From: Candidatus Hydrogenedentota bacterium
GTDB taxonomy: Bacteria; Hydrogenedentota; Hydrogenedentia; Hydrogenedentales; JAGMZX01
Length of the DNA: 64,000 nucleotides
Assembly (NCBI GenBank): GCA_029556545.1
Contig: JAKQEQ010000042.1
Location: forward strand, 18,729 to 82,728
Direction of reading: 5' to 3'
The notes under the pieces were generated by a model. That model was given only the letters and a program-made list of their open reading frames with translations. It did no database searches and had not been told where the DNA came from. The position numbers and the translations under genes are program-made. Positions 3,028 through 58,559 of the stretch are shown here, in pieces (the stretch's first letter is position 1; every line of letters begins with the position of its first letter).

Positions 3028-4995
3028 ATGCGGCCACGATGCGTCCTACTCGCGGGCGGACTGTGCCTGGCAATCCTGGTCGGCAGCAACGCCCCGACCG
3101 CCGCCGCGCCGCTGGCCGTCGGCCCCATGTCGGACGCACCCGCGCCCGCCGACCTGCCGGAAATCCTCGACCGGCTCTACGTCTCCATCGAGGGCCAGGC
3201 GCGCCACCTGCTCACCCACGTGGACCCCTGGAGCAAGGACCGCGCGCTGAAACTGCTGACGCGAAGCAAGCACGGCGAGCACTGGATTCGCCCGAACACC
3301 GGCGCGTTCGCGGCCTTCTGTTTCCTGCACCGCTTCGGCCCGTACGATGCGGCGCGCGTCGGCGCCTCGCGCGAGACGCTGCTCGACGAAACCATCATTC
3401 CGATGGCCCGCTATCTGGTCACGACGCACGTCACCGGCTCGCGACCCACCGGCGACGGCGATCCCTGGGGCGACCAGTGGCAGTCCGCGCATTGGGCGCA
3501 CATGCTCGCGCGCGGCGCGTGGTGGGTCTGGGGCGCGCTCCCGCCGGACCTGCGCGACGGCATGTGCCGCGTCATCGCGCACGAGGCCGACCGTTTCGTC
3601 GACCTGACGCCGCCGCACAACCTCGTGGACGACACGAAGGCCGAGGAGAACGCCTGGAATGCTCAGGTTCTCTCGACGGCCGTCGTGCTGATGCCCGAGG
3701 ACCCGCGCCGCCCCGATTGGGACCGCGCGTTTCAGCGCTGGGCCTTGTCGTCGTTCCTGCGGCCCGCCGACGCGACCTCGGACGCGATGGTGGACGGACG
3801 CCCCCTCGCGGACCAATTCACCGGCGCGAACATCTACGACGACTTCACGCTCGAAAACCACCGCCGCGTGCATCCCGACTACATGGCCACGTTCCTGCTC
3901 TCGATGGGCTGCGTCATCGACTTCGCGATGACCGGCCGCATACCGCCCGAGGCCGTTTATCACAACGCCGCCGGCATCTACGAGAACCTCAAGTGGTTCT
4001 CGCTCCCGAGCGGCGGGTTCGTCTATCCGAACGGCCAGGATTGGGAACTCTTCCGCGACCCCGAGTGGCTCGTCGTCCACGTGCTCATGGCCGCCCACGG
4101 CGGCGACCCCGATGCGTGGGCCCTCGCGCGGCCCTGCATCGACACCCAGGACAAGATGCAGGCGCGCGACCCCTCCGGCGCGGTCTACCTCGACAACGAA
4201 TTCTTCTTCCCCTCGACCCGAACGGACCAGGTGTACTACTCCGTCCTCGCGTGGCTCTTCGCGCAATACCGCAACCCCATCATCGACGCGACGCGCCCGC
4301 GCCTCGGCGTGCTCGCCCTCGAACACGGGCGCATCCTGCTCCACCGCACGCCCGCCGCCGTCCACGCCGTGAGTTGGGGCCCCGAGACCATGATCCAGTT
4401 CGTGCCGTACCGCCTCGACCGCGTCACCTCGCCCCACCCGAGCAGCGGCGTCGGCCATATCCGCCTCGCGGGCGAGAAGGACCCCTTGCCCGTCCGCGCG
4501 CGCAACGTCGCGGTCTCACGCGACGACGGCTTCACCGCCGACCTCGATCTCATTTACGGCGACGACCTCGTCAATGCGCGCTGGCGCGTGCGGTCCACGT
4601 CCGACGGCGTCATGCACTGGCGCGCGACGATCACCGCCCTCGCCGACGTCGAGACCGCCGAGATCGCCGCGGGCCTCATCGGCGTCCTGAACAACACGCT
4701 CTGGATATACGAACGCGGCGCGCGCACCCTCGCCGTCGACGGCGCGAAACGGACCCTGGCCTGCGGCAGCGGCGAAGAAGTCCGCGCCGACGGCGCGCGC
4801 GTCGTCGTGATTGACGGTGTGCTGCGGGTCGAATCCGAAGCCCCGCTGCGCATGCGCTACAAGACTGCCGCCGCGCCCGAACGCGCCCGTTTCACCGACG
4901 AACTGCACCTGGTTTACAATGACGCGCCCGCGACGTGGCCCAAAGGCGCGACCATTGCCGAACTCGACGTCCGCTTGTCCACAGTACCGCAATAA
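3028..4995 (+). CDS. secreted hypothetical protein (655 aa)
   Basis: N-terminal signal peptide (MRPRCVLLAGGLCLAILVGSNAPTAAA). Long uninterrupted ORF. Alternate-frame ORFs over the same span are Arg-rich GC artefacts. Confidence 0.65.
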   Translation: MRPRCVLLAGGLCLAILVGSNAPTAAAPLAVGPMSDAPAPADLPEILDRLYVSIEGQARHLLTHVDPWSKDRALKLLTRSKHGEHWIRPNTGAFAAFCFLHRFGPYDAARVGASRETLLDETIIPMARYLVTTHVTGSRPTGDGDPWGDQWQSAHWAHMLARGAWWVWGALPPDLRDGMCRVIAHEADRFVDLTPPHNLVDDTKAEENAWNAQVLSTAVVLMPEDPRRPDWDRAFQRWALSSFLRPADATSDAMVDGRPLADQFTGANIYDDFTLENHRRVHPDYMATFLLSMGCVIDFAMTGRIPPEAVYHNAAGIYENLKWFSLPSGGFVYPNGQDWELFRDPEWLVVHVLMAAHGGDPDAWALARPCIDTQDKMQARDPSGAVYLDNEFFFPSTRTDQVYYSVLAWLFAQYRNPIIDATRPRLGVLALEHGRILLHRTPAAVHAVSWGPETMIQFVPYRLDRVTSPHPSSGVGHIRLAGEKDPLPVRARNVAVSRDDGFTADLDLIYGDDLVNARWRVRSTSDGVMHWRATITALADVETAEIAAGLIGVLNNTLWIYERGARTLAVDGAKRTLACGSGEEVRADGARVVVIDGVLRVESEAPLRMRYKTAAAPERARFTDELHLVYNDAPATWPKGATIAELDVRLSTVPQ

Positions 4996-5642: not shown

Positions 5643-5802
5643 ATACCCGCGCAAGCGGGTATCCAGCGCAATGCGCCATTCCCGCGCGTTCGCGCGGGAA
5701 TGACCGGTTTATTCTGATTGCTGGATTCCCGCTTTCGCGGGAATGACGGGGAGGGACTGGGTTCCCGCTTCCCGCTTCCCGCTTCCCGCTTCCGCGGGAA
5801 CA
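5643..5802. repeat. cluster of palindromic hairpin units (family A: GTCATTCCCGCG-GNRA/GAAA-CGCGGGAATCCAG) plus (CCCGCTT)x4
   Basis: Contains TTCCCGCGCGTTCGCGCGGGAA (perfect hairpin), CTGGATTCCCGCTTTCGCGGGAATGAC (reverse-orientation unit) and gttCCCGCTTCCCGCTTCCCGCTTCCCGCTTCCgcgggaac. Same family as 6185-6450 and 37422-37503. Confidence 0.8.
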
Positions 5803-47219: not shown

Positions 47220-47552
47220 GTGCCTCGGATTTTCGACAATATCGGCGAGTCGCTTCTGCCCGCCTTGCAGAACACGCTTAAGCTGTCTCATCGGGCGGAT
47301 TTCTGTGTTGGATACTTCAATCTTCGCGGTTGGCGGCTCGTGGATTCCCTGACGACGGCACCCTGGGAAGTAGCCCGGCAGCCCGCCAATGAAGGGATGC
47401 ACCGGACGGACGAACTGGACGACGGCGTGCGCAACCCGCCGTCAGTTCTTTTCGGGGCTCTTGAGAGAATCACCTGCCGAAAACGCATTCCACAGTCTCA
47501 GGCGGCGACGGCGACGGCAAATCTTCCGCGCACGCTGCGGTCCCAGACGTAG
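47220..47552 (+). pseudogene. possible N-terminal remnant of a PLD-like nuclease/helicase-type defence gene
   Basis: [38 protein letters not shown] resembles N-termini of PLD-domain restriction/helicase proteins. Loses similarity after ~60 aa and runs antisense into the hsdR 3' end. Weak. Confidence 0.25.
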
Positions 47553-50500
47553 TCGTATACCCGCTTCACAAGCGTCTCGGTTTCCTCTTCGGAAAACGGC
47601 GGTTGGGGAAGGCTCTGCCAGAGCGAATCCCGAATTACTGTTTCCACCTGGGCTTGCGTGGCAGCATTCTTCGTCCAGTCGTGCATCGGTTCGAGCAGTT
47701 GGACAAGCGTACTCAACAGGGACCGGCTGGCCTGTTTGAGCCGCTCCCGGTCGGCTTTACTGATGTCCTCCCGGAACAGCATCTGGAACAGGGCGTACTC
47801 GGTCTCGGAAAGCCCTTCCTCCGCTGCTTTCCGCTGTTCCGCGTCGAGTTCCTGGGCGAGTGCAACCAGTCTCGTGAAAGTCTCCTCCACGGAGACTCGG
47901 TCCTTTTCCCGGTTGTAGTCGGCGATGATTTCCTGATACCGCTTGTAGTAATCCATCCGCGCCGGGTTGACGGCAAGCATGGCGGCCAGCTTCTCTTCCA
48001 CAAGTTGGCAGAGGTCCTGGACCGCCGTATGCTTCCGGGTCACTCGCGACGCGAATTCCTCCCGCAACCGCTCGAAATCAATCGTGCTCAGGTCCACCGC
48101 GAGACCCTCGGCGCGGTCGTCGCCGGGCTGCTGCGCGCGGATGGCCTCGTTGACGATTCGATGTATTTCCTTCAAGACCTCCGTGACGTCGGCCGTGTCG
48201 CGCCGCTCCAAGAGCTTCCTGTAAATGGTCTCGATATTGTCATGCCGCTCCACGTAGGCGTAGGCGCCAGGCTCCGTGACCAGGGCCTTGAACCGGGAAA
48301 ACACCTGGCGCGCGATGATCTCGAATTTCCGTCTTGCCGCATCTGACGTGTAAAGCACCTCGACGGCGTCGCGCAACGCCTCGATTCGGTCGAAGCCGCG
48401 CGCGCCGGCGAACCTGCCCGGATCAAACCCCAAGGCGCGGAGATGCCCCTCAGCGGCCTCGATGGCATCCACGAGCGCCGCGACAAGCGCCTCGATAGGC
48501 TCTGCGACGTCTTCCACTCCGCCCGCGCCGTCGTCGTCAACGCCCTCATCCCCGAGCGCGTACTGCGCAAGCGCCTCCCGCAGGCTTCGCAGCATGCCGT
48601 TGTAGTCCACGATAACGCCGCACTCCTTGCCGGGGTACACCCGGTTGGGGCGGGCAATCGCCTGCATCAGCGTATGCGCTTTCATCGGCTTATCGATGTA
48701 CAACGTCGAGAGACACTCGACGTCGAAGCCCGTCAGCCACATGGCGCACACAATGGCCACGCGGAATGGATGTTCCGGGTCCTTGAAGGCGTCCTCGACG
48801 CTGACGCGGCGCCCGTCCGGCGTCTCGAAGCCGAATTTCATGACGGTGCGATGGGGGATGATATCAACGCCCCACCGCTGGAAGTCCCGCACCTCGTTCT
48901 GCGCCTCGCTGATGATGAACTCGATGATCGCGCTTTCCATCCACGCGATTTGCCCGCGCAGGGCGGTTATCTTTCGCAGGACGGCCTCGCGCTCATCTTC
49001 ATCGGAACAAGCCGCGAACGCCGACTCCACCGCCGCCAATTCGCCCCGCAGCGCGGCTGTCTTCGCGTCCCAACGGGGCATGATCCGCTGATGCATGCGC
49101 CCGCACGTGATCTTGTCGATGCACACCATCATCGACTTGCCGCTTTCCCATCGAGCGGCGCAATGTTCGACAAAATCGTCCGCCAGCTTGTCCAGCCGGT
49201 CATCCGCGGTAATGACTTCGTAATCCTGCCCGAGCAACCGCTCGAGCAGTGCCGTCTGGTCCACATCGAGTTCGGCCTCTTCGATCTTTTCGGCGATCTG
49301 GTCGTTCAGGTCGAGCCGCGCGATGCCCAATTTTTCGCCCCGGCTCTCGTAGACCAGTTTGACCGTTGAATTGTCTTCCTCCGAACGCTTGAAATCGTAC
49401 CGGGAAACGTAATCGCCGAAAATGCGTCGTGTCAGTTCGTCATGTTTGAACAAGGGCGTGCCCGTGAACCCGATGAACGAAGCGTTCGGCAGGGCCAGCC
49501 GCATGTTCCGCGCGAATTTGCCCGCCTGCGTGCGGTGCGCCTCGTCCGAGATCACGATGATGTCGTCGCGCTCGCTGTAGGGCGCGGTCACGTCCTGATT
49601 GAACTTGTGGATGAGGCTGAAGATGAAGCCGTGGTTCTCGCCGAGCAGGCGACGCAGGTCGTCGCCCGAGGCCGCGCGCGGCGTCTGTTCATTCGCCACG
49701 CCGCAGCCCACAAAGGTGCGGAACAACTGCTCGTCGAGGTCTTCCCGGTCCGTCATCAACACGAACGTGAAGTTGCCCGGCACCACGCGCCGCACCTTCT
49801 CCGCGAAAAACACCATCGAATACGACTTGCCGCTCCCCTGCGTGTGCCAGAACACGCCCAGGCGCCCGAGGTCGGGGTGCGCGCGCTCGATCACTTGCAG
49901 CAGTTCCGTTTCTCTTCGCGGGAGCGCCCTGGCGGCCTCGCCTTCTTCGGCGGCCTTCTTCGGCACCGAACGCTGTATCTCATAGCGAAGCAGGCGCTCT
50001 TCCGGCGGATATTCGCGCTTCAAGTCCTCCTGACGCCGCACCGACGCTACCGCGCGGTTAACGCCCAGCACCTGATGGTTCCGCGCCATTATCTTCCGCG
50101 TGCCACCCGCGCGGCTGTCGTCGAACAACACAAAATTCTCGATCAGATCGAGCAGCCGATCCTTCGCAAGCATCCCCTCGACCAGCGCCTGCGCGTCCAG
50201 CCGCGCCGTGGACTGCTCGTCGTCCCGCTTCCACTCCGCGAAATGCTCCCACCGGCCCGTGATCGTGCCGTACCGCGCCCGGTCGCCGTTACTGACCACC
50301 AGAAATGCGTTGTGGTGGAACGCGTGCGCGATCGTGTATTCGTTCAGGTAATCGGTCAGGTTCTTGTCGAATCCCTCGCGGATGTTCTTGTAGACCGCCT
50401 TCAACTCGATGAAGACCAGCGGCAGCCCGTTTACGAAACACACCAGGTCCGCGCGTCGGTTGTAATGCGGCACGCGCACCCCCTGTATCTTCAACTCGCG

Positions 50501-50914
50501 CACCGCCAGAAAGCGGTTATTCGCCGGTGCCCGGAAGTCGATCACCCGCGCCCGTGCGTACTGCGTCTCGCCGGACCCGTCCCGCCACTCGACCGGCACC
50601 CCATTCCGGATATACCCGTGGAACTCCCGGTTGTGCTGCACCAGCGACCGCGAATAATCCACCCGCGTCAGTTTTTCGACCGCCTGCTCGACTGCTTCCC
50701 CCGGCAATTCCGGATTCAACCGGACCACCGCCGCCCGCAAGTCCCGCGTCAGCACCACCTCCCGCTCCGAACCCCGCCCCAGCAGCCCCGACGGCCCGAA
50801 CGTCTCCTCGTTCCACGCGAAACACGTCTCCCAACCCAGCGCTTCCTCAAGGTGCCGCGCCACGGTCTCCTGGACCAGCCGGTCTTCGCTGTTGATGTCC
50901 GTAATCAACGCCAA
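47498..50914 (-). CDS. hsdR: type I restriction enzyme R subunit
   Basis: 1138 aa. N-terminal nuclease region, SF2 helicase motifs (GSGKS Walker A, DEAHR motif II in ...[11 protein letters not shown]), C-terminal helical domain. Confidence 0.9.
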
Positions 50915-51000
50915 TCGGCCTTTCTAAAGGACACTCAGCCCAATTCTAAAGGACATTCGGTTTTGGGCGCCATTTATATAAAACATTGCGCTGCAATGCG

Positions 51001-51471
51001 TTACAGCAATTCATATCGTACAGGGTCTTTATAGACATCGGTTATTTGCAGCATTTTGGACTTTATGCCGTCTGTGGCCTCACGAGCCACGGGGACGGGA
51101 ATAAACATGCCCGCAGTCGCTTGACCCAAGCCGCCATTCCTTCGCTGGTCGTGTCCGCAATCATCGCCTATCCGCCTTTCTATTGGACACTCGACGCAAG
51201 TCAATTGGACAATGCTCCAATTGTGCCCAATATGCAAATCCTTTCCATTGCACAGTTTACGAGATTTGAAGCGATCCGGTCTATTGACCCATTCAGGTAT
51301 TTGTCCAATAGAACTCGGCCCACGACCTTCCAATTGCCTCGGGAAGACACCCGACTCAATTTGCCGATGCAGCAGCCCTTTCCACGCGGACTGCCACCTT
51401 GGCTCATCACGCAGATACTCTGCCAGCGTCGCTTGGGCCAGCCGGTCCTCGCTGTTGATGTCGGTGACCAT
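51001..51471 (-). pseudogene. duplicated 5' fragment of hsdR (insertion scar)
   Basis: [23 protein letters not shown] aligns to the hsdR N-terminus [27 protein letters not shown] ~88% identical over ~35 nt by hand alignment (accgacatcaacagcgaggaccggctggcccaag vs acggacatcaacagcgaagaccggctggtccagg). The rest of the ORF is unrelated. Confidence 0.5.
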
Positions 51472-51486
51472 GTGGATGTTATCGAT

Positions 51487-53970
51487 CTACCTCTTTTCGT
51501 GATTGATCGGAACGGGAATCGCGATACCAAGCTGCACCGCGACAGGAGTGTAAATGTCTATCTCCTGCTCCGGCGTCTCAATAGAGACTATCAGGGAGTA
51601 CCGGCAGCGGCTGTCCCATCTTCGAAGGTGCTGTCGCTCGCGCCACCAGCCGGTGGTTGGATACACGGCGACCAGATTCGAAGTCGCCAACTCGGCTGCC
51701 GTGCCGTGCCAAATATCAGAGTGAATAGAACCTACGTTCCGTGCCTCCCCGATAAACCACTTGCCGCCCGGACCCACAGTGCCAGGGTGGCCTTCGTCAT
51801 CTTCCCATGCCTGACGGTTTACTCTCCGGACGAACTCATCCTTCGATTCCTGCGGCCCATTCAACGCGAAGCGGAGCGCATGCGACGCGTACCGGTAGCG
51901 ATTGCCCCATCCTACTTCGCCTGGCCCAGGTTCAACAAAATAGGAGAGTGTCACCCTCATCTCGACGGCACTCTCACCTAGAGAGGATAAGACCTCCGTG
52001 GGCCATGGCAAGTTGTATAGATGCATTTCATTCGTTACATACCGGCTGTCGCGCCTATCAAACGGTTGCAGTTCTGCCTGGGAAATCAACGTCAGCGAAC
52101 TTGCCAAGGAATACAAAGCACGTGGCAGGCTGGGCACACCGTACCCGCAAATCCGCAGGAGGTTCGCGATCTCCTGCTTGCTTGGATTGAGCTGCGGCAA
52201 GAACTGTTGCAGCATTGTCTGCGTCCAGCGTGCCGAGTGCACAAGGAGTCCGCGTACTGTTTCAGGCCAAGCTTCGGGGTATGCGATGTGAATCTGAGCG
52301 GCCATCCAGGCCGCCTGTGCAGCGGCAGCGCTCGTGGCGCTGAACGGCAAGAACTGAGCCGTTGACGGATCAGAACTGGTCGAAAGTAATTTCAAGTCTT
52401 CGGTATCGAATATGGAATTATTTGGACCGGCCGCGACGTTGCCACCTTCCAGAAGTATGTCGGGCTTGATTGGCCAGCGCCGCCGATCCCATGCGGCAGA
52501 AGTCGTGCTGAACGGTGAAAGCCCACCAGCGGGCGCGACGGCACTCCAAGAGATCATTGTGGGGTCAGTAATGCGTACCTTTTCCGTATACGCACCTGCC
52601 GTCAGGGCATTCCACGCCTGAGCCGGATCATGTACCTCTTCGGTCAGATTTGCATGCGGATAGTTGCGCCAACTGTTGGACTCCACAACATTTCCCGCAC
52701 TTACTATGATTAACCGTTTGCGATCGTCTTCATAGCCCGACGCAATAGAGTCAAGTTCTGCGGACCACGAGGAGGGGCGGCCCCGGTCAAGGTCCTCCGG
52801 TGAGGTCACCGCAAGACAGACAATTCTCCGACGCTGCGGTGCCTGGATTTCCGCGAGACTGATTCCTTGTGCTGTCCGATGCCCCCAAAGCTCTTTCGGG
52901 TTCTGTGCTGGCGGCGGCGGGAGTATTTTCGAGGATTCGAGTCGATGTGATACCCGAATGGCCGAAGTACTATTGAGAATCTGCAACAAGTCGCCGTATG
53001 CGGCCGTTCCCGCCATCAGCGTTCCGTGTCCATCATTGTCATGGATGCCCCACTGGCGAATCACGGCGTGCATGTCGCTTGCGTCGAGCACCGGTTGGAG
53101 CAGCACATGTCCGCTGTTCACGCCGCTGTCAAGGATACAGACTGCGATGTCGCCGTCCCCCTCGAATCGTGTTCTTTGCAGCAAGTCTTGAACCAGTTGT
53201 ACTTGATCCCGGCTCTCCATCTCGATGTAGTACGTGGCAACCTGCTTTGCAACGCGAAATTCAACAATAATGTCGGATCGTTCAATAAGGCTGGCCAGTT
53301 GCCCGCCGGTCGCCTTGATCAGTAATACGGAACGCTCAGGGAACGTCAATTGTCCCTCGGCCTGAGTAACCTCCAGCGATTCGAGCAACGCCCTGAATTG
53401 GGCAATTTCATCGCCGGATTCCGTACCAAGCCAGACCTCGATCCAATCGGCCGAAGAACCGGGTATCTGGTCCCGCTCTTCCGGACGCCAGAACGATTCC
53501 AGTACTGCGCGGCGAATGTCGGAAATGCTCCGGACGAGTTTGTCATGCTTTGGCTTCTTACGTTCTTCAGGCGGAAGGGCGTAGCCCTCCAGAATCTTAA
53601 GGAAATGCCTGCGTTTCTCATTCGGCACATAGACTGTTGCCAATGTGCGCGCTCCGTCCGGTCCCGGAACCTCGCGTACGTTGCATAGGCGGATCCCTGA
53701 ACGAAGACGTTCCAGACTCGTTACTCTGAGGTCGTATCCGGGTTCCCCTTCAAACTCGATATATGCGCCGCGACGGGTTGTTTGCACCACGGCGCGCGCG
53801 GCGTCTACCTCGTGCCACGTGGCATTCAGTCGGGACAACAGAAGTTCGCTGTGGCTGGCTTGATCACGCACAGGGATATTTGCGTCGCCGCCCCCGCGTC
53901 GCGGGTTGGTGAATCCCTGTGATTCTTCACGGCCCGATATGTCGAGGTGTTGGTAGAGAGGCCCCCCCAT
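51487..53970 (-). CDS. ietS: S8 family (subtilisin-like) serine peptidase, 827 aa; candidate IetS-like defence protease
   Basis: Catalytic triad motifs present: CILDSGV (Asp), HGTLMAGTAA (His), FSATSAAAAQAA (Ser). ~290 aa N-terminal extension. ATG 6 nt downstream of the AAA-ATPase stop. Gene symbol rests on my recollection of the IetAS ATPase + S8 architecture and is tentative. Confidence 0.8.
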   Translation of the reverse strand: MGGPLYQHLDISGREESQGFTNPRRGGGDANIPVRDQASHSELLLSRLNATWHEVDAARAVVQTTRRGAYIEFEGEPGYDLRVTSLERLRSGIRLCNVREVPGPDGARTLATVYVPNEKRRHFLKILEGYALPPEERKKPKHDKLVRSISDIRRAVLESFWRPEERDQIPGSSADWIEVWLGTESGDEIAQFRALLESLEVTQAEGQLTFPERSVLLIKATGGQLASLIERSDIIVEFRVAKQVATYYIEMESRDQVQLVQDLLQRTRFEGDGDIAVCILDSGVNSGHVLLQPVLDASDMHAVIRQWGIHDNDGHGTLMAGTAAYGDLLQILNSTSAIRVSHRLESSKILPPPPAQNPKELWGHRTAQGISLAEIQAPQRRRIVCLAVTSPEDLDRGRPSSWSAELDSIASGYEDDRKRLIIVSAGNVVESNSWRNYPHANLTEEVHDPAQAWNALTAGAYTEKVRITDPTMISWSAVAPAGGLSPFSTTSAAWDRRRWPIKPDILLEGGNVAAGPNNSIFDTEDLKLLSTSSDPSTAQFLPFSATSAAAAQAAWMAAQIHIAYPEAWPETVRGLLVHSARWTQTMLQQFLPQLNPSKQEIANLLRICGYGVPSLPRALYSLASSLTLISQAELQPFDRRDSRYVTNEMHLYNLPWPTEVLSSLGESAVEMRVTLSYFVEPGPGEVGWGNRYRYASHALRFALNGPQESKDEFVRRVNRQAWEDDEGHPGTVGPGGKWFIGEARNVGSIHSDIWHGTAAELATSNLVAVYPTTGWWRERQHLRRWDSRCRYSLIVSIETPEQEIDIYTPVAVQLGIAIPVPINHEKR

Positions 53971-53976
53971 CCTGCT

Positions 53977-54945
53977 TTACCCCCTTATCCCTTGATGGAC
54001 ACTCCGCCGTTCTGCCAGACTTTGCCGCAGAGCGCCGGCCGTCACCTTCGTCTTGTCCGCAAGAATGGCCCGCTTGATGGCGTCGCGGCAGGCGGTGTCG
54101 ATTTCGGCATGGCTGAGACGCGCGCTCTGGCGCAGCACCGCCGCCCACGCGAATTTGGGCGCGAGGAAGGTGCCCAACACGTTCTGCATGAGCCGTTTGC
54201 GGTCGGCTTCTTCCGGCAGTGCGTAGTACAACACATCGTCGAAACGGCGGTACAGCGCGCGGTCGAGCAGCTTCGGGCTGTTCGTCGCCGCCACGATCAG
54301 ACTGTCGGAACTGTCCTGCTCGATAAACTGTAGAAAGGCATTCAGCACCCGGCGCATCTCCGCCACATCGTTTTCCAGCATGCGTTCGCCACCGATGGCG
54401 TCGAACTCGTCGAAAAGGTAGACCCCCGGCTCCTGCTGAATCAGCTCGAAGATCTGGCGCAGCTTCGCGCTCGTCTCACCCATGAACTTCGTCACCAGCT
54501 TGTCCACCTGGACGGTGTGCAGCGGCAACCTTAGTTCATGCGCCAGCACCCGCGCCGTCATCGTCTTGCCCGTGCCCGGCGGCCCGACAAGCAGCACCTT
54601 GCGCCGGTGCGCCAGCCCGTGCAATTTCAGCTTCTGCTGTTGACGGTACTCATGAACGATGCGCTGCACCCGGTCGGACAACGACTCCGGAATCACCAGC
54701 GCAGAGCGCGGCGTGTCCGGTTCCTCGGAAAACACCAGCCCGCGCAAGTCCACCGGAAACTTCAATATCCGAGGGCCGCGCTCCCGCCGTGCCTTATCCA
54801 CGAGTTCCCGGATGTCAAGGGCCAGCGCCCCGTGGCCCTGTTGGGCCTCATGCGCCGCTACTTGCAGCGCAATCGTGTAAAACCGCTCCGCGTCGTCACT
54901 TAGGTGCGACCGAATCAGCGCCTTCAGTTGTTCCGCAGTGGCCAT
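53977..54945 (-). CDS. ietA: AAA+ ATPase (classic AAA, SpoVK/CbbX-like); candidate IetA-like partner of the S8 peptidase
   Basis: 322 aa. Walker A GPPGTGKT, Walker B LFDEFDA, sensor/Arg-finger region ATNSPKLLDRALYRRF. Sits between hsdS and the S8 gene. Gene symbol tentative. Confidence 0.8.
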   Translation of the reverse strand: MATAEQLKALIRSHLSDDAERFYTIALQVAAHEAQQGHGALALDIRELVDKARRERGPRILKFPVDLRGLVFSEEPDTPRSALVIPESLSDRVQRIVHEYRQQQKLKLHGLAHRRKVLLVGPPGTGKTMTARVLAHELRLPLHTVQVDKLVTKFMGETSAKLRQIFELIQQEPGVYLFDEFDAIGGERMLENDVAEMRRVLNAFLQFIEQDSSDSLIVAATNSPKLLDRALYRRFDDVLYYALPEEADRKRLMQNVLGTFLAPKFAWAAVLRQSARLSHAEIDTACRDAIKRAILADKTKVTAGALRQSLAERRSVHQGIRG

Positions 54946-55055: not shown

Positions 55056-56261
55056 TCATACCGCAATCTCCCCGTTCATCAGGCGCGGCAGGAGTAGATC
55101 GCGCGCCGCGCGGAGACGTTCATTGTGCTGCTTGAGCACACGAATTTGAGCAAAGTGGAGGCTGGCCTGCTCGGAAAACTCCAGAGTGAAGCTGTGCGCG
55201 GGAATCACCACCTCGAATTCGCGAAACTTCCCTCGACTGACTTCGGGGTACGTGCTCCCGCTGCCCATGGAGCGGATTTCTTCAACCCGGTCGGAAAGAT
55301 GAAACACGAGGTACGGGGTCAAAACGGGTTCGTGGGGCACAACAGAAATGAAACCCTGGTTGGTGCAGACTTCGCGGCCCGCTATGCCAAAGAAGCCGAC
55401 GGAGGCGCGACTCGTCATGAGAATGGCATGGGGTTTGACAAGCTTTGCCGAACTATTCTGTAACCCCGCCTCTGTAATCTTCTTCTCGGCATCCAGAAGA
55501 ACGAAATGCTTATTCCTCGTTACATCAGTTGGTGTCACCCACGTGATTTCGCCGTCGTCCCAATAAGCAGCATTCGCAGTTGAAGGCGTGCCGCCCCCAA
55601 CGCAATCGGCCACATCACCTATTCGTTTCCGTTCCCAGCCTTGGGGGAGGCCGTTCGTGATGGGGGTGTGTTCGTGGCCGGGGAAGCGGAGGCGGACAAA
55701 CCATTCGCGGTAGAGTTGGCGGGCCGATTCTTCCAACAACGCCATCCGCCGCCGGTTGTTCTCGATCAGGTCGTCATACGCCGACAAGATGTCTGCAATG
55801 CGTTGCTGCACTTCGAGCGAAGGAAAGCTTATCTCGACTCCTGCGAGCTTTTCTCGTGGAAGATGCTTGATTGTTGCGCCGGTTAACAGAGGCGTAAAGC
55901 CCCCGAGCCTTCCCTTATGAAGCAGTGAATAGAACAGGAACCGGTAATCGAGGCAATCATGAGGACGAATGCGGTGAAGGGCTTTTTGGTACATTACTCC
56001 GGGCATAGGCTCTTTCCAAACTGCGCAACGTCCGGGTTCGCCGCCTTCACACAGGAGAATGTCGCCGCACTTCAACCCGTATCGCTCCATTTCATCTTGC
56101 TCGAACCGCATCTCGCGAAGGTTCTCAAGATCGAACTCGCCCCAGCGAACGTTGATATTTGCAAGATACGGAAGGGCTTCTCCCCTATTTTTCCTTTCGT
56201 CCAACATTTTACCCAAGCTAAAATCCGCAATCTCGGCCAAGGGCTTAGTCATCCACTTCAT
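55056..56261 (-). CDS. hsdS: type I restriction-modification system specificity subunit
   Basis: 401 aa. Two target-recognition domains separated by a conserved central coiled region (LIENNRRRMALLEE...). Start overlaps the hsdM stop (ATGA). Confidence 0.85.
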   Translation of the reverse strand: MKWMTKPLAEIADFSLGKMLDERKNRGEALPYLANINVRWGEFDLENLREMRFEQDEMERYGLKCGDILLCEGGEPGRCAVWKEPMPGVMYQKALHRIRPHDCLDYRFLFYSLLHKGRLGGFTPLLTGATIKHLPREKLAGVEISFPSLEVQQRIADILSAYDDLIENNRRRMALLEESARQLYREWFVRLRFPGHEHTPITNGLPQGWERKRIGDVADCVGGGTPSTANAAYWDDGEITWVTPTDVTRNKHFVLLDAEKKITEAGLQNSSAKLVKPHAILMTSRASVGFFGIAGREVCTNQGFISVVPHEPVLTPYLVFHLSDRVEEIRSMGSGSTYPEVSRGKFREFEVVIPAHSFTLEFSEQASLHFAQIRVLKQHNERLRAARDLLLPRLMNGEIAV

Positions 56262-58378
56262 ATCCCCAACTCCTGGAAGTTGGCCTGGATTTTGGCGGCG
56301 AGATCGGCGGCTTCGGTGTTGAGGTCGGCGAGTTCGACGTGGATGCCGCGGAGGGTCTCCTCGAAGTCGAAGTCTTCGTCGTCTTCCTGGGGCGCGACGC
56401 CGACGTAGCGGCCGGGGGTGAGGCTCCAGTCGGCGGCGGCGATTTCGGCGCGGGTGACGAGCCGGACCAGACCGGGCACGGCTTCGAGGTCGGCCTTCGG
56501 GAAGCGGTCTTCGAGCCAGGCGACCTGCCGGTGGAAGTAGACGGTGCGCTTGAGTTGTTCGACGGCGTCCTTGCGCGTGTCGTCGAGTTGTTTGACGAGG
56601 CGGTTGGCGGCGCGGCGGTCGTAGCTGGATTCGAGGCCGGTTTCCACGACGAGGTTCGCGGCGTGGTCCGCCACGCGCGCGGTAAGCTTGAAGACGAGGT
56701 CCACCTGTTTGACGAGGCCGCGCAGGCGCTCCGCGACAGGCTCGAAGGCATGGCGCGCGGCATGCTGCGCGGCGTTCGATTTGGGCGGCTTCTTCCCGTA
56801 CTTCTTCACGAACGCGGCGCAGTCTTTGATCGCGCGCTTCCGGTCGGCGATATAGGCCGTCACGGCGTCAGACGATTCAAGGAGCGCGTCCAGGAACGGC
56901 TGTTTCGTCTCCGCGGGCACGTCCCAAACGTTATTGACGCTTATCGCCAGCGCGGCCAGTCGCATTCGGAGTTCGCCCAGCGCCTTCTCGAATGTGTCGA
57001 TCGCGCCGGGCACGGCGGCGCACTCTTCGCAGACGCGGCGGAAGTAGTCGGTCACGAGCGCGAGGAAGCGGTCGCGTTGGCCGCGGTAGAGCCAGACGAT
57101 GGCGGCGAGGTTGTGCAGTTGTTCGGGCGAGAAATCGTTGATCTTGCGGTTGACCTTGCGGAACACATTGCGCGCGTCGATCATGAGGACCGTATCGCGC
57201 CGTTCGGCGGGCTTGCCGCGGTCGAAGAACCAGAGTTCGCAGGGGACGGTGCGCGTATAGAAGAAATTCGAGCGGATCGAGACCATGACGTCCACGTCGC
57301 CGGTCTCGACCATCTTGCGGCGGACTTCCTTCTCGCCGTGGCCCGCGCTCGAAGCCTGAGACGACATGACGCAGCCGGCGCGGCCTTTCTCGTTCAGGTA
57401 GCTCCAGAAATACGAGAGCCAGAGGTAGTTGCCGTTCGAGACCTTCTTGGCCTTGTTCACGCCGGGCAGGCCGAAGGGCAGGCGCGGATCGCCCTGGATG
57501 CGCTCGGCATCGACCAGATCGACGTTGAACGGGGGATTGGCCATGACGAAGTCGCATTTGCCGTAGAGGCTGTGTTCGTCCTGGTAGTAGGTGATGGCCT
57601 CGGCAATCTGGCCTTCGAGGCCGTGTACGGCGAGGTTCATCTTGGCGATGCGGATGGTGTCGCGGTTCTTTTCCTGGCCGTAGAACACGACTTTCTTCGC
57701 CGTGTCGCCGCCGGCCTGCTCGATGAAGTGGCTCGATTGCACGAACATGCCGCCGGAGCCGCAGGCGGGGTCGAAAACGGTCCCGTGGTCCGGCTCGATG
57801 ACGTTGACGATGGTCTGCACGATCGAGGCGGGCGTGAAGAACTCGCCGTTGTCGTGGGCCTTCTGGATCGAGAACTTGGCGAGAAAGTATTCGTAGATGC
57901 GGCCGAACACGTCGCCCGTGGCGTTCTTGATGCGCTCGGTGTTGAAGGTGCGCATCAGGTTTTCGAGCACGGCGGGCTCGAAAATGCCGTAGTCCTTCGG
58001 GAGCACGTTCTTGAGCGGATCGAAGGCCGCCTCGATGGCCTCCATCGCGCCGGTCACCAGTTTGGGCAGGCCCGACTGGTCAGAGGTGGCCTTTTTCATG
58101 ATCGTGTCGTAATGCGCCGCCTCCGGCAGCCAAAGCGCGCGGCGCGAGATGTAGTCGGCGGGCTGCACCTTGCGTTTGGGCATCTTGCCGCTCGCCTGGT
58201 CCGCCTGAATCTGGCGCGTGGCGGCGTCGAACCGGTTGGCGGCGTGGCGCAGGAAGATAACGCCCAGCACGGGCATGAAATAGTCGCTCGAGGTGAGCTT
58301 CGAATTCGCGCGGAGGTTGTCCGCCGCCTCCCACAAGTCGGCTTCCAGCTTGTCGATGTCTCTGAAAACGTCCGGCAT
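56258..58378 (-). CDS. hsdM: type I restriction-modification system methyltransferase subunit (long form)
   Basis: 706 aa from MPDVFRDID. N6-adenine MTase motifs (VFDPACGSGGMF motif I, NPPF motif IV) and N-terminal HsdM_N region. ORF opens at 58432. Confidence 0.9.
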   Translation of the reverse strand: MPDVFRDIDKLEADLWEAADNLRANSKLTSSDYFMPVLGVIFLRHAANRFDAATRQIQADQASGKMPKRKVQPADYISRRALWLPEAAHYDTIMKKATSDQSGLPKLVTGAMEAIEAAFDPLKNVLPKDYGIFEPAVLENLMRTFNTERIKNATGDVFGRIYEYFLAKFSIQKAHDNGEFFTPASIVQTIVNVIEPDHGTVFDPACGSGGMFVQSSHFIEQAGGDTAKKVVFYGQEKNRDTIRIAKMNLAVHGLEGQIAEAITYYQDEHSLYGKCDFVMANPPFNVDLVDAERIQGDPRLPFGLPGVNKAKKVSNGNYLWLSYFWSYLNEKGRAGCVMSSQASSAGHGEKEVRRKMVETGDVDVMVSIRSNFFYTRTVPCELWFFDRGKPAERRDTVLMIDARNVFRKVNRKINDFSPEQLHNLAAIVWLYRGQRDRFLALVTDYFRRVCEECAAVPGAIDTFEKALGELRMRLAALAISVNNVWDVPAETKQPFLDALLESSDAVTAYIADRKRAIKDCAAFVKKYGKKPPKSNAAQHAARHAFEPVAERLRGLVKQVDLVFKLTARVADHAANLVVETGLESSYDRRAANRLVKQLDDTRKDAVEQLKRTVYFHRQVAWLEDRFPKADLEAVPGLVRLVTRAEIAAADWSLTPGRYVGVAPQEDDEDFDFEETLRGIHVELADLNTEAADLAAKIQANFQELGI

Positions 58379-58559
58379 GCAATCTCCCCTCGGGCGGGCA
58401 CGCATCCTGGTCCAACCTGACCACGCAGGCATTCCGCCTGCCCGACACTTTCCATGGAAACCGGCTTCATTCTACTGCGCAACCGGCGACGGCGCAAGGG
58501 GCGCCCGCGGGCAACTTTCGACGCACGGCCTTTGTTACAGACAGCCCTCGCCGGGCACG

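Follow-up and report, generated by a model that had tools for sequence, protein, structure and literature searches.

Why is the start of a restriction gene found a second time directly behind a pair of defence genes, 563 nt ahead of the start of the gene itself? The question is raised by a locus in a 64,000-nt stretch of DNA from a Candidatus Hydrogenedentota bacterium (assembly GCA_029556545.1, contig JAKQEQ010000042.1, positions 18,729 to 82,728; this whole stretch is called the window below, and coordinates are those of the window unless a related locus, numbered with the prefix L, is named). On its minus strand, the genes hsdM, hsdS, ietA, and ietS are followed by a spacer of 572 nt and by hsdR. 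From the characteristic domains encoded by hsdM, hsdS, and hsdR, the locus is predicted to be a complete Type I restriction-modification (R-M) system, in which ietA and ietS encode an AAA ATPase and an S8 subtilase. A preliminary description of this DNA had noticed a duplicated 5' end of hsdR downstream of the S8 gene and had read it as the scar of the event that placed the AAA/S8 pair between hsdS and hsdR. Our results indicate that the fragment, here called copy C, is the remnant of a different hsdR allele and not a duplicate of the resident gene, and a further truncated start, copy B, lies between it and the live gene. The explanation that we favour, with a probability of about 0.68, is that copies C and B are dead recombination scars between alleles in a cargo hotspot, three hsdR starts being nested in the 572-nt spacer.

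Truncated hsdR starts in the ietS-hsdR spacer

Read from ietS towards hsdR, the spacer consists of a 15-nt linker, the following segments, and then the live gene.

51382-51471, minus strand: copy C, predicted hsdR pseudogene remnant, codons 1 to about 30, of a non-resident allele
51314-51381, minus strand: segment u, 68 nt, origin not traceable, between copy C and the upstream-region copy
51165-51313, minus strand: full extra copy of the hsdR upstream region (positive control, z = 21.7)
51140-51164, minus strand: copy B, truncated hsdR codons 1-8 (ATG ATT GCG GAC ACG ACC AGC GAA G), part of direct repeat D1
50956-51139, minus strand: segment X2, 184 nt, origin not traceable, between the two copies of the 72-nt repeat
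50915-50955, minus strand: proximal hsdR upstream region; TGTCCTTTAGA occurs twice, in direct orientation, at 50945-50955 and 50923-50933

The ATG of copy C is at 51471, 15 nt past the ietS stop codon (51487-51489) and not about 70 bp from the S8 gene as first given; the distance from the end of copy C to the start of hsdR, 476 nt, fits the earlier figure of about 490 bp. A DNA profile built from 78 hsdR 5' ends of the family and searched with nhmmer matched positions 51470-51390 over profile positions 5-85 with an E value of 1.1e-13, and this was its sole extra match in the window, which confirms a second hsdR 5' end on the minus strand at 51471-51382. Copy C is 82% identical to the resident hsdR start over 49 nt (repeat D2); a blastn search inside the window aligned the two at 84% over 44 nt (E 4e-8), and at the protein level the likeness to HsdR can be traced to about codon 30. 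The same stretch of the window is present with 100% identity, over 8.9-10.9 kb, in two independent metagenome assemblies (ENA ERZ27257465 and JGI 3300025784), and copy C is therefore not an assembly artefact; since both of these contigs are identical to the window throughout, they are uninformative about polymorphism within the organism.

A third partial hsdR copy had been missed in the preliminary description. It spans 51313-51140 and comprises an upstream region together with hsdR codons 1-8. Its last part, 51211-51140, aligns at 78% over 72 nt with codons 1-8 of the resident hsdR and the 45 nt ahead of them (blastn E 2e-11), the two forming the 72-nt direct repeat D1 (51140-51211 and 50884-50955). 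As a whole, 51313-51140 matches the hsdR upstream region and gene start of locus L083 (794-967) at 74% identity over 175 nt, and 50955-50700, which leads into the live gene, is 85% identical to L083 896-1151. Segments u and X2 had no homologues among about 90 loci when compared by blastn, tblastx, and local alignment.

The allele from which copy C derives was sought in its codons. The first 12 hsdR codons are nearly invariant across the family, which counts about 8000 HsdR proteins at E <= 1e-100, and therefore cannot tell alleles apart. When 57 nt are compared, the identity of copy C to the resident hsdR takes rank 34 of 77, and in the variable codons 13-23 it falls to 55% (rank 51 of 81, below the median), while the best matches to these codons come from other phyla, with 73% in L065, L057, and L031 and 70% in others, such as L038. 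These best-matching alleles are of the LRD type: copy C encodes QATLAEYLRD, in agreement with the family consensus ATxAEYLRD, and the resident type reads ETVARHLEE. Because random decay of a local copy would not drift toward the family consensus, copy C is assigned on these codons to another hsdR allele, and the earlier view of a duplicated resident 5' end is not supported.

We then compared the place of copy C with the layout of other ietAS-bearing loci. There, hsdR starts 10 nt (L065), 18 nt (L091), or 33 nt (L033) after the ietS stop or overlaps it (L094), and the linker between ietS and copy C, ATCGATAACATCCAC, resembles that of L065, ATCGGGACAC; L055 and L084 have instead an upstream region of 152-167 nt between ietS and hsdR. 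Copy C thus occupies the native hsdR start position of ietAS-bearing loci and marks the joint at which the ietAS module meets a unit of upstream region and hsdR on its downstream side, a joint that need not be the event that placed ietAS between hsdS and hsdR. What stands of the original proposal is that copy C is a recombination scar joined to unrelated sequence. Its tie to the insertion of the AAA/S8 pair is not supported: no matching scar was detected at the hsdS-ietA side, copy C lies where hsdR usually starts after ietS, and none of the other ietAS-bearing loci has a fragment like it. A search of the window spacer for an hsdS 3' remnant was likewise negative, the best local score being equal to the shuffle mean. 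The closest ietAS is that of L091 (IetA 94%, IetS 86%), which is also the only ietAS locus with which the hsdS-ietA intergenic region is conserved. L091 remains closest along the whole length of ietAS, with no allele switch at the ietS 3' end, and L083 remains closest over the whole length of hsdR, with no mosaic structure, so the breakpoints must lie inside the spacer.

A local duplication of the resident hsdR 5' end, produced in the manner of a target-site duplication when ietAS was inserted, would account for a second hsdR start adjoining the cargo, and a process of this kind would fit locus L068, where extra hsdR 5' copies are 84-94% identical to the hsdR of that locus. For the window, we regard it as unlikely. 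Copy C resembles the resident hsdR no more than it resembles homologues from other phyla, both over 57 nt and in the variable codons, and follows the consensus and not the resident residues; no matching repeat is found at the hsdS-ietA side, and no transposase or integrase nearby; and the stretch that separates copy C from the live start consists of hsdR upstream region and not of cargo. A transposon target-site duplication was considered and rejected: the repeats, of 49-82 nt and 78-84% identity, do not flank ietAS, copy C belongs to another allele, and no transposase was found.

Cargo and fusion junctions in the hsdS-hsdR interval

The genes of the locus are as follows.

56258-58432, minus strand: hsdM, 724 aa (Pfam N6_Mtase 1e-73 and HsdM_N; PADLOC MTase_I 8e-242)
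55056-56261, minus strand: hsdS, 401 aa (Pfam Methylase_S; PADLOC Specificity_I)
53977-54945, minus strand: ietA, AAA ATPase, 322 aa, embedded cargo (PADLOC IetA 1.3e-72; Pfam AAA 4e-31)
51487-53970, minus strand: ietS, S8 subtilase, 827 aa, embedded cargo (PADLOC IetS 4.3e-35; Pfam Peptidase_S8 9e-60)
47498-50914, minus strand: intact hsdR, 1136-1138 aa, start codon TTG at 50914 or 50908

HsdR contains the Pfam domains HSDR_N, SWI2_SNF2, T1R_D3-like, and T1RH-like_C, is recognized by the PADLOC model REase_I, and aligns end to end with 78 homologues (84% identity to P0002), which indicates that it is full-length. HsdM is 100% identical to an NCBI protein from a metagenome-assembled genome of Candidatus Hydrogenedentes, and the conserved 3' end of hsdS encodes ...AARDLLLPRLMNGEIAV before its stop codon. 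The genes ietA and ietS, which are adjacent on the same strand with 6 nt between them and match the PADLOC models for IetA and IetS, are predicted to form an IetAS pair, in which nothing unusual was seen. IetAS is reportedly an anti-phage system made up of an ATPase and an S8 protease and is said to have been described by Gao et al. in 2020. A Pfam scan of the flanking genes identified TPR, Ser/Thr kinase, and cytochrome proteins and no recombinase or transposase near the locus.

The nearest relatives of the backbone carry other cargo. The nearest HsdR (84%) is encoded in L083, where it is preceded by the gene for an S_4TM effector and an upstream region of 179 nt; the nearest HsdM (89%) is encoded in L090, from the same sample, followed by hsdS, a SMODS gene, and the start of a gene cut at the contig end. 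Although the two contigs do not overlap, they very probably represent one locus of the order hsdM-hsdS-SMODS-S_4TM-upstream region-hsdR, and neither contains an extra hsdR 5' copy. The SMODS nucleotidyltransferase (L090 13405-14418) and the S_4TM effector (L083 1-764) resemble a minimal pair of the CBASS (cyclic oligonucleotide-based anti-phage signalling system) type within a Type I system. In L084, the interval holds an S_4TM gene, a gene of 684 aa, ietAS (IetA 80%, IetS 65%), an upstream region, and hsdR (77%). Across the family, the identities of HsdM and HsdR to those of the window covary (r = 0.69), and the ietAS-bearing loci lie at or below the median of identity to the window; in L092 and L093, ietAS lies outside any Type I locus. 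The pair is thus mobile cargo and did not belong to the operon ancestrally. The comparison of related loci with and without the pair supports the preliminary description on this point: the closest backbone carries SMODS and S_4TM and not ietAS, while ietAS occurs in distant members of the family and outside Type I loci.

Among 67 loci with both hsdS and hsdR, the gap between the two genes ranges from 10 nt to 8.7 kb: 13 gaps are shorter than 60 nt, 2 measure 60-500 nt, 41 measure 0.5-2.5 kb, and 11 exceed 2.5 kb. The open reading frames (ORFs) of the gap form 36 cargo clusters, of which 22 are singletons. The clusters include AlbA_2/HATPase_c_4, DUF488 with a partner, zeta toxin, AAA_21/AAA_15, AbiEi/AbiEii, IetAS, AAA_14/DUF4143, GmrSD, and HipA-like pairs. 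In the window, ietAS lies between hsdS and hsdR on the same strand and varies among relatives, as embedded cargo does. The commonest cargo gene, found in 13 loci, encodes a protein of about 550 aa with AlbA_2 (Schlafen-like) and HATPase_c_4 domains; in L007, L032, L035, L036, L041, and L047 a repeat-rich region comes after it, ahead of hsdR, and in L068 and L023 the gene is broken or truncated.

Some ietAS-bearing loci deserve description in their own right. L091 (508-4270) is a Type I locus in decay that has kept ietAS. Its hsdM codons 1-103 are fused in frame to the last 8 hsdS codons (…RRALWLP/RLMNGEIAV, then stop), hsdS being otherwise deleted, and the fusion is followed by the same intergenic region as in the window, by ietAS, and by an hsdR of the resident type that lacks its start and is cut at about codon 90. 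Its ietA is intact, and its ietS lacks about residues 38-164 through an internal deletion. The cargo of L091 seems to have survived its host system and to have kept the 5' expression signals of the host. In L092 (about 3760-3770) and L093 (about 5752-5760), ATGGTTACC or ATGATCACC occurs 14-28 nt after the ietS stop; the string ATGRTYACC equals hsdR codons 1-3 and is possibly the last trace of an hsdR neighbour, too short to rely on. A large gene stands directly 5' of ietA in L084 (567-2621, 684 aa) and in L093 (20-2194, 724 aa). The 684-aa protein has no Pfam match and no detectable similarity to the 724-aa protein, for which no Pfam family is recorded either, and the two may be unrelated third components or neighbours of IetAS.

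Extra hsdR 5' ends recur in another form elsewhere in the family. L068, a locus from the Verrucomicrobiota with a gap of 8.7 kb, contains five of them between cargo genes whose Pfam matches include an OLD-like nuclease, the broken AlbA_2 gene, DUF488 with its partner, a GIY-YIG protein, and a HipA-like pair. Three of the L068 copies extend through codon 24 (...HLRD) and pass in frame into the hsdS 3' end (LLLPRLMSGEI.V, then stop), with a joint that coincides with a shared GCGCGAC microhomology, and in two of these three the stop overlaps the ATG of the next gene. The pattern of an hsdR 5' end followed by an hsdS 3' end was found in five more metagenome contigs (L085, L086, L088, and the pair L087/L089, which crosses over at codon 18), and viral contigs gave no match. 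Altogether, eight distinct junctions (four in L068 and one each in L085, L086, L088, and L087/L089) join hsdR codons 1-24 or 1-18 in frame to the last approximately 14 codons of hsdS.

L068, 3039-3149, 5190-5300, 7059-7169, and 7982-8092: fusion junctions
L085, 3262-3384: fusion junction
L089, 92-196: fusion junction
L086, 1473-1583: fusion junction (stored locus reverse-complemented)
L087, 1719-1823: fusion junction (stored locus reverse-complemented)
L088, 7346-7456: fusion junction (stored locus reverse-complemented)

All eight are intact mini-ORFs of 34-40 codons between cargo genes. For six, the nearest following ORF of 80 codons or more begins between -14 and +5 nt relative to the stop of the mini-ORF, which suggests, without proving it, that the fusions are kept for translational coupling of stacked cargo. 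Cargo modules change position, as seen in two homologous cargo genes, of which the one in L085 precedes the junction and the one in L088 follows it. In L023, an hsdS 3' remnant is fused to the truncated AlbA_2 gene. The hsdS 3' and hsdR 5' ends are thus recurrent points of recombination across the family, and this is what our analysis adds.

The end of the target gene is found as a copy in genomic islands and integron cassettes, examples being the tRNA 3' end at attL and attR, and attC. The loci described here share with them a module bounded by a partial copy of a flanking gene, the flanking gene itself staying intact, and, in L068, stacked arrays; they differ in that no integrase was found, the breakpoints vary, and the copy in the window belongs to another allele, while the joints look homologous or based on microhomology. 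The pieces of hsdR 5' and hsdS 3' ends could nevertheless be attachment sites of an integron-like, site-specific cassette system whose recombinase is encoded elsewhere. Such a system would explain why the same crossover point (…HLRD/LLLPRLM…) appears in six junctions from four contigs, why L068 contains arrays of up to five cassettes delimited by these units, and why a motif is repeated in both orientations upstream of hsdR. We consider it quite improbable. No recombinase was found in the flanks of the window or in the scanned cargo (census clusters, L068, L083, and L084; the cargo of L085, L086, and L088 was not domain-scanned), and the recurrent joint coincides with the shared, GC-rich microhomology in the same frame. 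The remaining joints vary (codon 18 in L087/L089, within hsdM in L091, within a cargo gene in L023, about codon 30 in copy C, and codon 8 in copy B), and the hsdR 5' end shows only slightly elevated conservation at synonymous sites (0.56 versus 0.49, rank 48 of 572). An integron-like cassette array was rejected for the same lack of a recombinase in flanks and scanned cargo and for its differing crossover points.

More tentatively, and with the odds rather against it, the conserved last approximately 14 hsdS codons and first approximately 24 hsdR codons may act as universal adapters. Units of hsdS 3' end, cargo, and hsdR 5' end would be swapped by homologous recombination and stacked by crossover between an hsdR 5' end and an hsdS 3' end at the shared in-frame microhomology, and a fusion mini-ORF of 36 codons would couple the next cargo translationally. 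If this were true, the interval would be an integron-like cassette platform for defence genes that needs no recombinase, and the fragment in the window would be a failed, non-homologous product.

Upstream regions and the reading frame opened by copy C

The two hsdR upstream regions of the spacer share a motif, TGTCCNWTAGA, that has four matches in the window, all of them in this spacer, compared with an expectation of 0.05. In the extra upstream-region copy, TGTCCAATAGA stands at 51179-51189 on the minus strand and again, inverted, at 51302-51312 on the plus strand, and the degenerate TGTCCAATTGA stands at 51201-51211 on the minus strand. The region is a candidate for an hsdR-specific promoter or operator, to judge from its motifs. 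In 82 related loci, nine of 11 matches are found no more than 250 nt ahead of hsdR, as a rule 12-19 nt from its start codon; the motif precedes hsdR also in L023, L025, L042, L060, L063, L083, and L084, and other members of the family have GAGCCAAT or CCAATAGA repeats at the equivalent place. Identification as an operator of the regulator RptR was rejected: the published RptR site is TAGCTA, TAGATA, TATCTA, or TATATA and lies upstream of rptR, unlike TGTCCNWTAGA, which here lies upstream of hsdR. No small regulator was present among the Pfam-scanned ORFs of the window, and no search aimed at rptR homologues was made. A sigma-70 promoter scan gave nothing on the minus strand, and an Rfam search of 50600-51700 gave a sub-threshold chance match only. 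Segment X2 contains two overlapping terminator-like hairpins (51008-50989 and 50999-50983, minus strand) followed by one stretch that is T-rich and AT-rich; they lie about 70-95 nt upstream of the hsdR start and would part hsdR transcription from that of the hsdM-hsdS-ietAS unit.

The start codon of copy C opens a longer frame.

51001-51471, minus strand: ORF of 156 codons, probably not a gene

The fragment might be functional, either because this ORF is a real protein with an HsdR N-terminus or because translation from its start behind ietS works as a leader and adjusts hsdR expression by way of the upstream control region. No stop interrupts the frame for 156 codons, it begins 15 nt past the stop of ietS, and a terminator-like hairpin lies close to its end; the junctions of hsdR and hsdS elsewhere are all intact mini-ORFs with a stop abutting the next gene, so such starts can stay in use. 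We nonetheless judge a function very unlikely. The ORF has no Pfam or PADLOC match, its GC content at third codon positions is 0.55 compared with 0.82-0.88 in hsdR and hsdM, and its frame crosses DNA that is non-coding upstream region in L083; on these grounds it is probably no gene, and it was called by one of two gene callers on identical DNA. Among the fetched loci (no database-wide protein search was run), there is no likeness beyond the first approximately 30 residues and the upstream-region stretch, and the Rfam search gave no valid match. Since the ORF ends 90 nt before hsdR, it is not coupled to that gene.

That the fragment reflects a chance likeness or a mis-assembly is extremely unlikely, for although the HsdR N-terminus is nearly invariant in thousands of proteins, the match is at the DNA level, in register from the start codon (E 1e-13), at the orthologous hsdR start position, and identical in three independent assemblies, which disposes of the widespread N-terminal motif that the preliminary description had named as an alternative.

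Origin of the scars and their place among embedded defence systems

We infer the following course of events for the favoured explanation, in which copies C and B are recombination scars. The copies with their positions and allele affinities, the varying cargo, and the recurrent fusion junctions of other loci are observed, whereas the sequence of the events, the type of recombination, and the loss of function are deduced. In an earlier state, the locus would have had the order hsdM-hsdS-ietAS-hsdR, with an hsdR of another allele directly after ietS. A unit of upstream region and hsdR of the L083 type would then have been joined downstream through a non-homologous left joint, leaving codons 1-30 of the former gene as copy C, and a second event of similar kind may have left copy B and X2, with a 72-nt imperfect direct repeat, shared with the live start, around the 184-nt insert. 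The outcome would be the separation of hsdR from the hsdM-hsdS-ietAS unit, hsdR probably being placed under its own upstream control region with TGTCCNWTAGA repeats. For this widely transferred Type I family as a whole, the hsdS-hsdR interval is a cargo slot, whose modules would be exchanged and stacked through recombination at or near the conserved hsdS 3' and hsdR 5' ends.

The likely route is homology-facilitated illegitimate recombination anchored in hsdR or further downstream, a process that de Vries and Wackernagel are said to have described in 2002 for natural transformation. One homologous anchor and one illegitimate joint would leave a truncated 5' remnant, donor upstream DNA, and an intact gene. 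The window presents a truncated 5' remnant, foreign upstream DNA, and an intact gene; hsdR has no mosaic boundary, the joints at u and X2 cannot be mapped, and neither an anchor nor microhomology can be identified.

Several observations weigh against this course of events. The order of the steps is not fixed, because no genome, whether intermediate or sister, was found to combine this ietAS with an intact hsdR of the copy C type. Segments u and X2 have no traceable origin, and no microhomology can be defined at their joints. In L091, the closest relative of ietAS, the hsdR fragment that follows is of the resident type, so copy C is not simply the native neighbour of this ietAS lineage; the seamless junction of L091 could be ancestral or could result from a homologous crossover within the conserved first 45 nt. 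Extra hsdR 5' copies occur in two of about 90 loci (the window and L068), and the strict junction pattern is matched by five metagenome contigs only, so that most cargo exchange must be scarless or take another route. The presumed lack of function of the 156-codon ORF, finally, is drawn from two things, its composition and its absence of homologues.

Defence genes embedded in Type I R-M loci are known: PrrC in EcoprrI and DarTG2 between hsdS and hsdR in enteropathogenic Escherichia coli are examples, and the principle has been named 'guilt-by-embedding' (bioRxiv 10.1101/2024.01.29.577857; PMC12255303; PMC12707154). In its available text, the paper on RptR calls the interval a potential recombination hotspot (PMC12255303), and that of Payne et al. 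suggests a 'genomic sink' origin and states that the significance of embedding 'remains to be explored' (10.1101/2024.01.29.577857). The window shares with these operons same-strand cargo between hsdS and hsdR, here IetAS, with at least 36 other cargo families in relatives; the anatomy of the junctions is not given in the available parts of those papers, whereas here the joints are visible as hsdR 5' and hsdS 3' remnants. Partial copies of Type I genes are also present in the phase-variable hsdS shufflon of pneumococcal SpnD39III, in which inverted target-recognition modules are flipped by a tyrosine recombinase (PMC7557576); the copies in the window are direct, decayed hsdR starts, and no recombinase was found. 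Taken by itself, the case in the window is an ordinary pseudogene scar beside embedded defence cargo, of a known kind.

That defence genes reside inside Type I R-M operons was known, and the route by which they enter is not addressed in the available text of the papers cited. The scars are physical traces of exchange and point to recombination at conserved gene ends and not to a dedicated mobile element, which offers a modest new clue to how embedding arises. If the pattern is general, the boundaries of Type I cargo would be predictable from sequence, and the search for new defence genes in the hsdS-hsdR slot could become more precise. A simple device for keeping stacked cargo expressed would also be provided by the fusion mini-ORFs.

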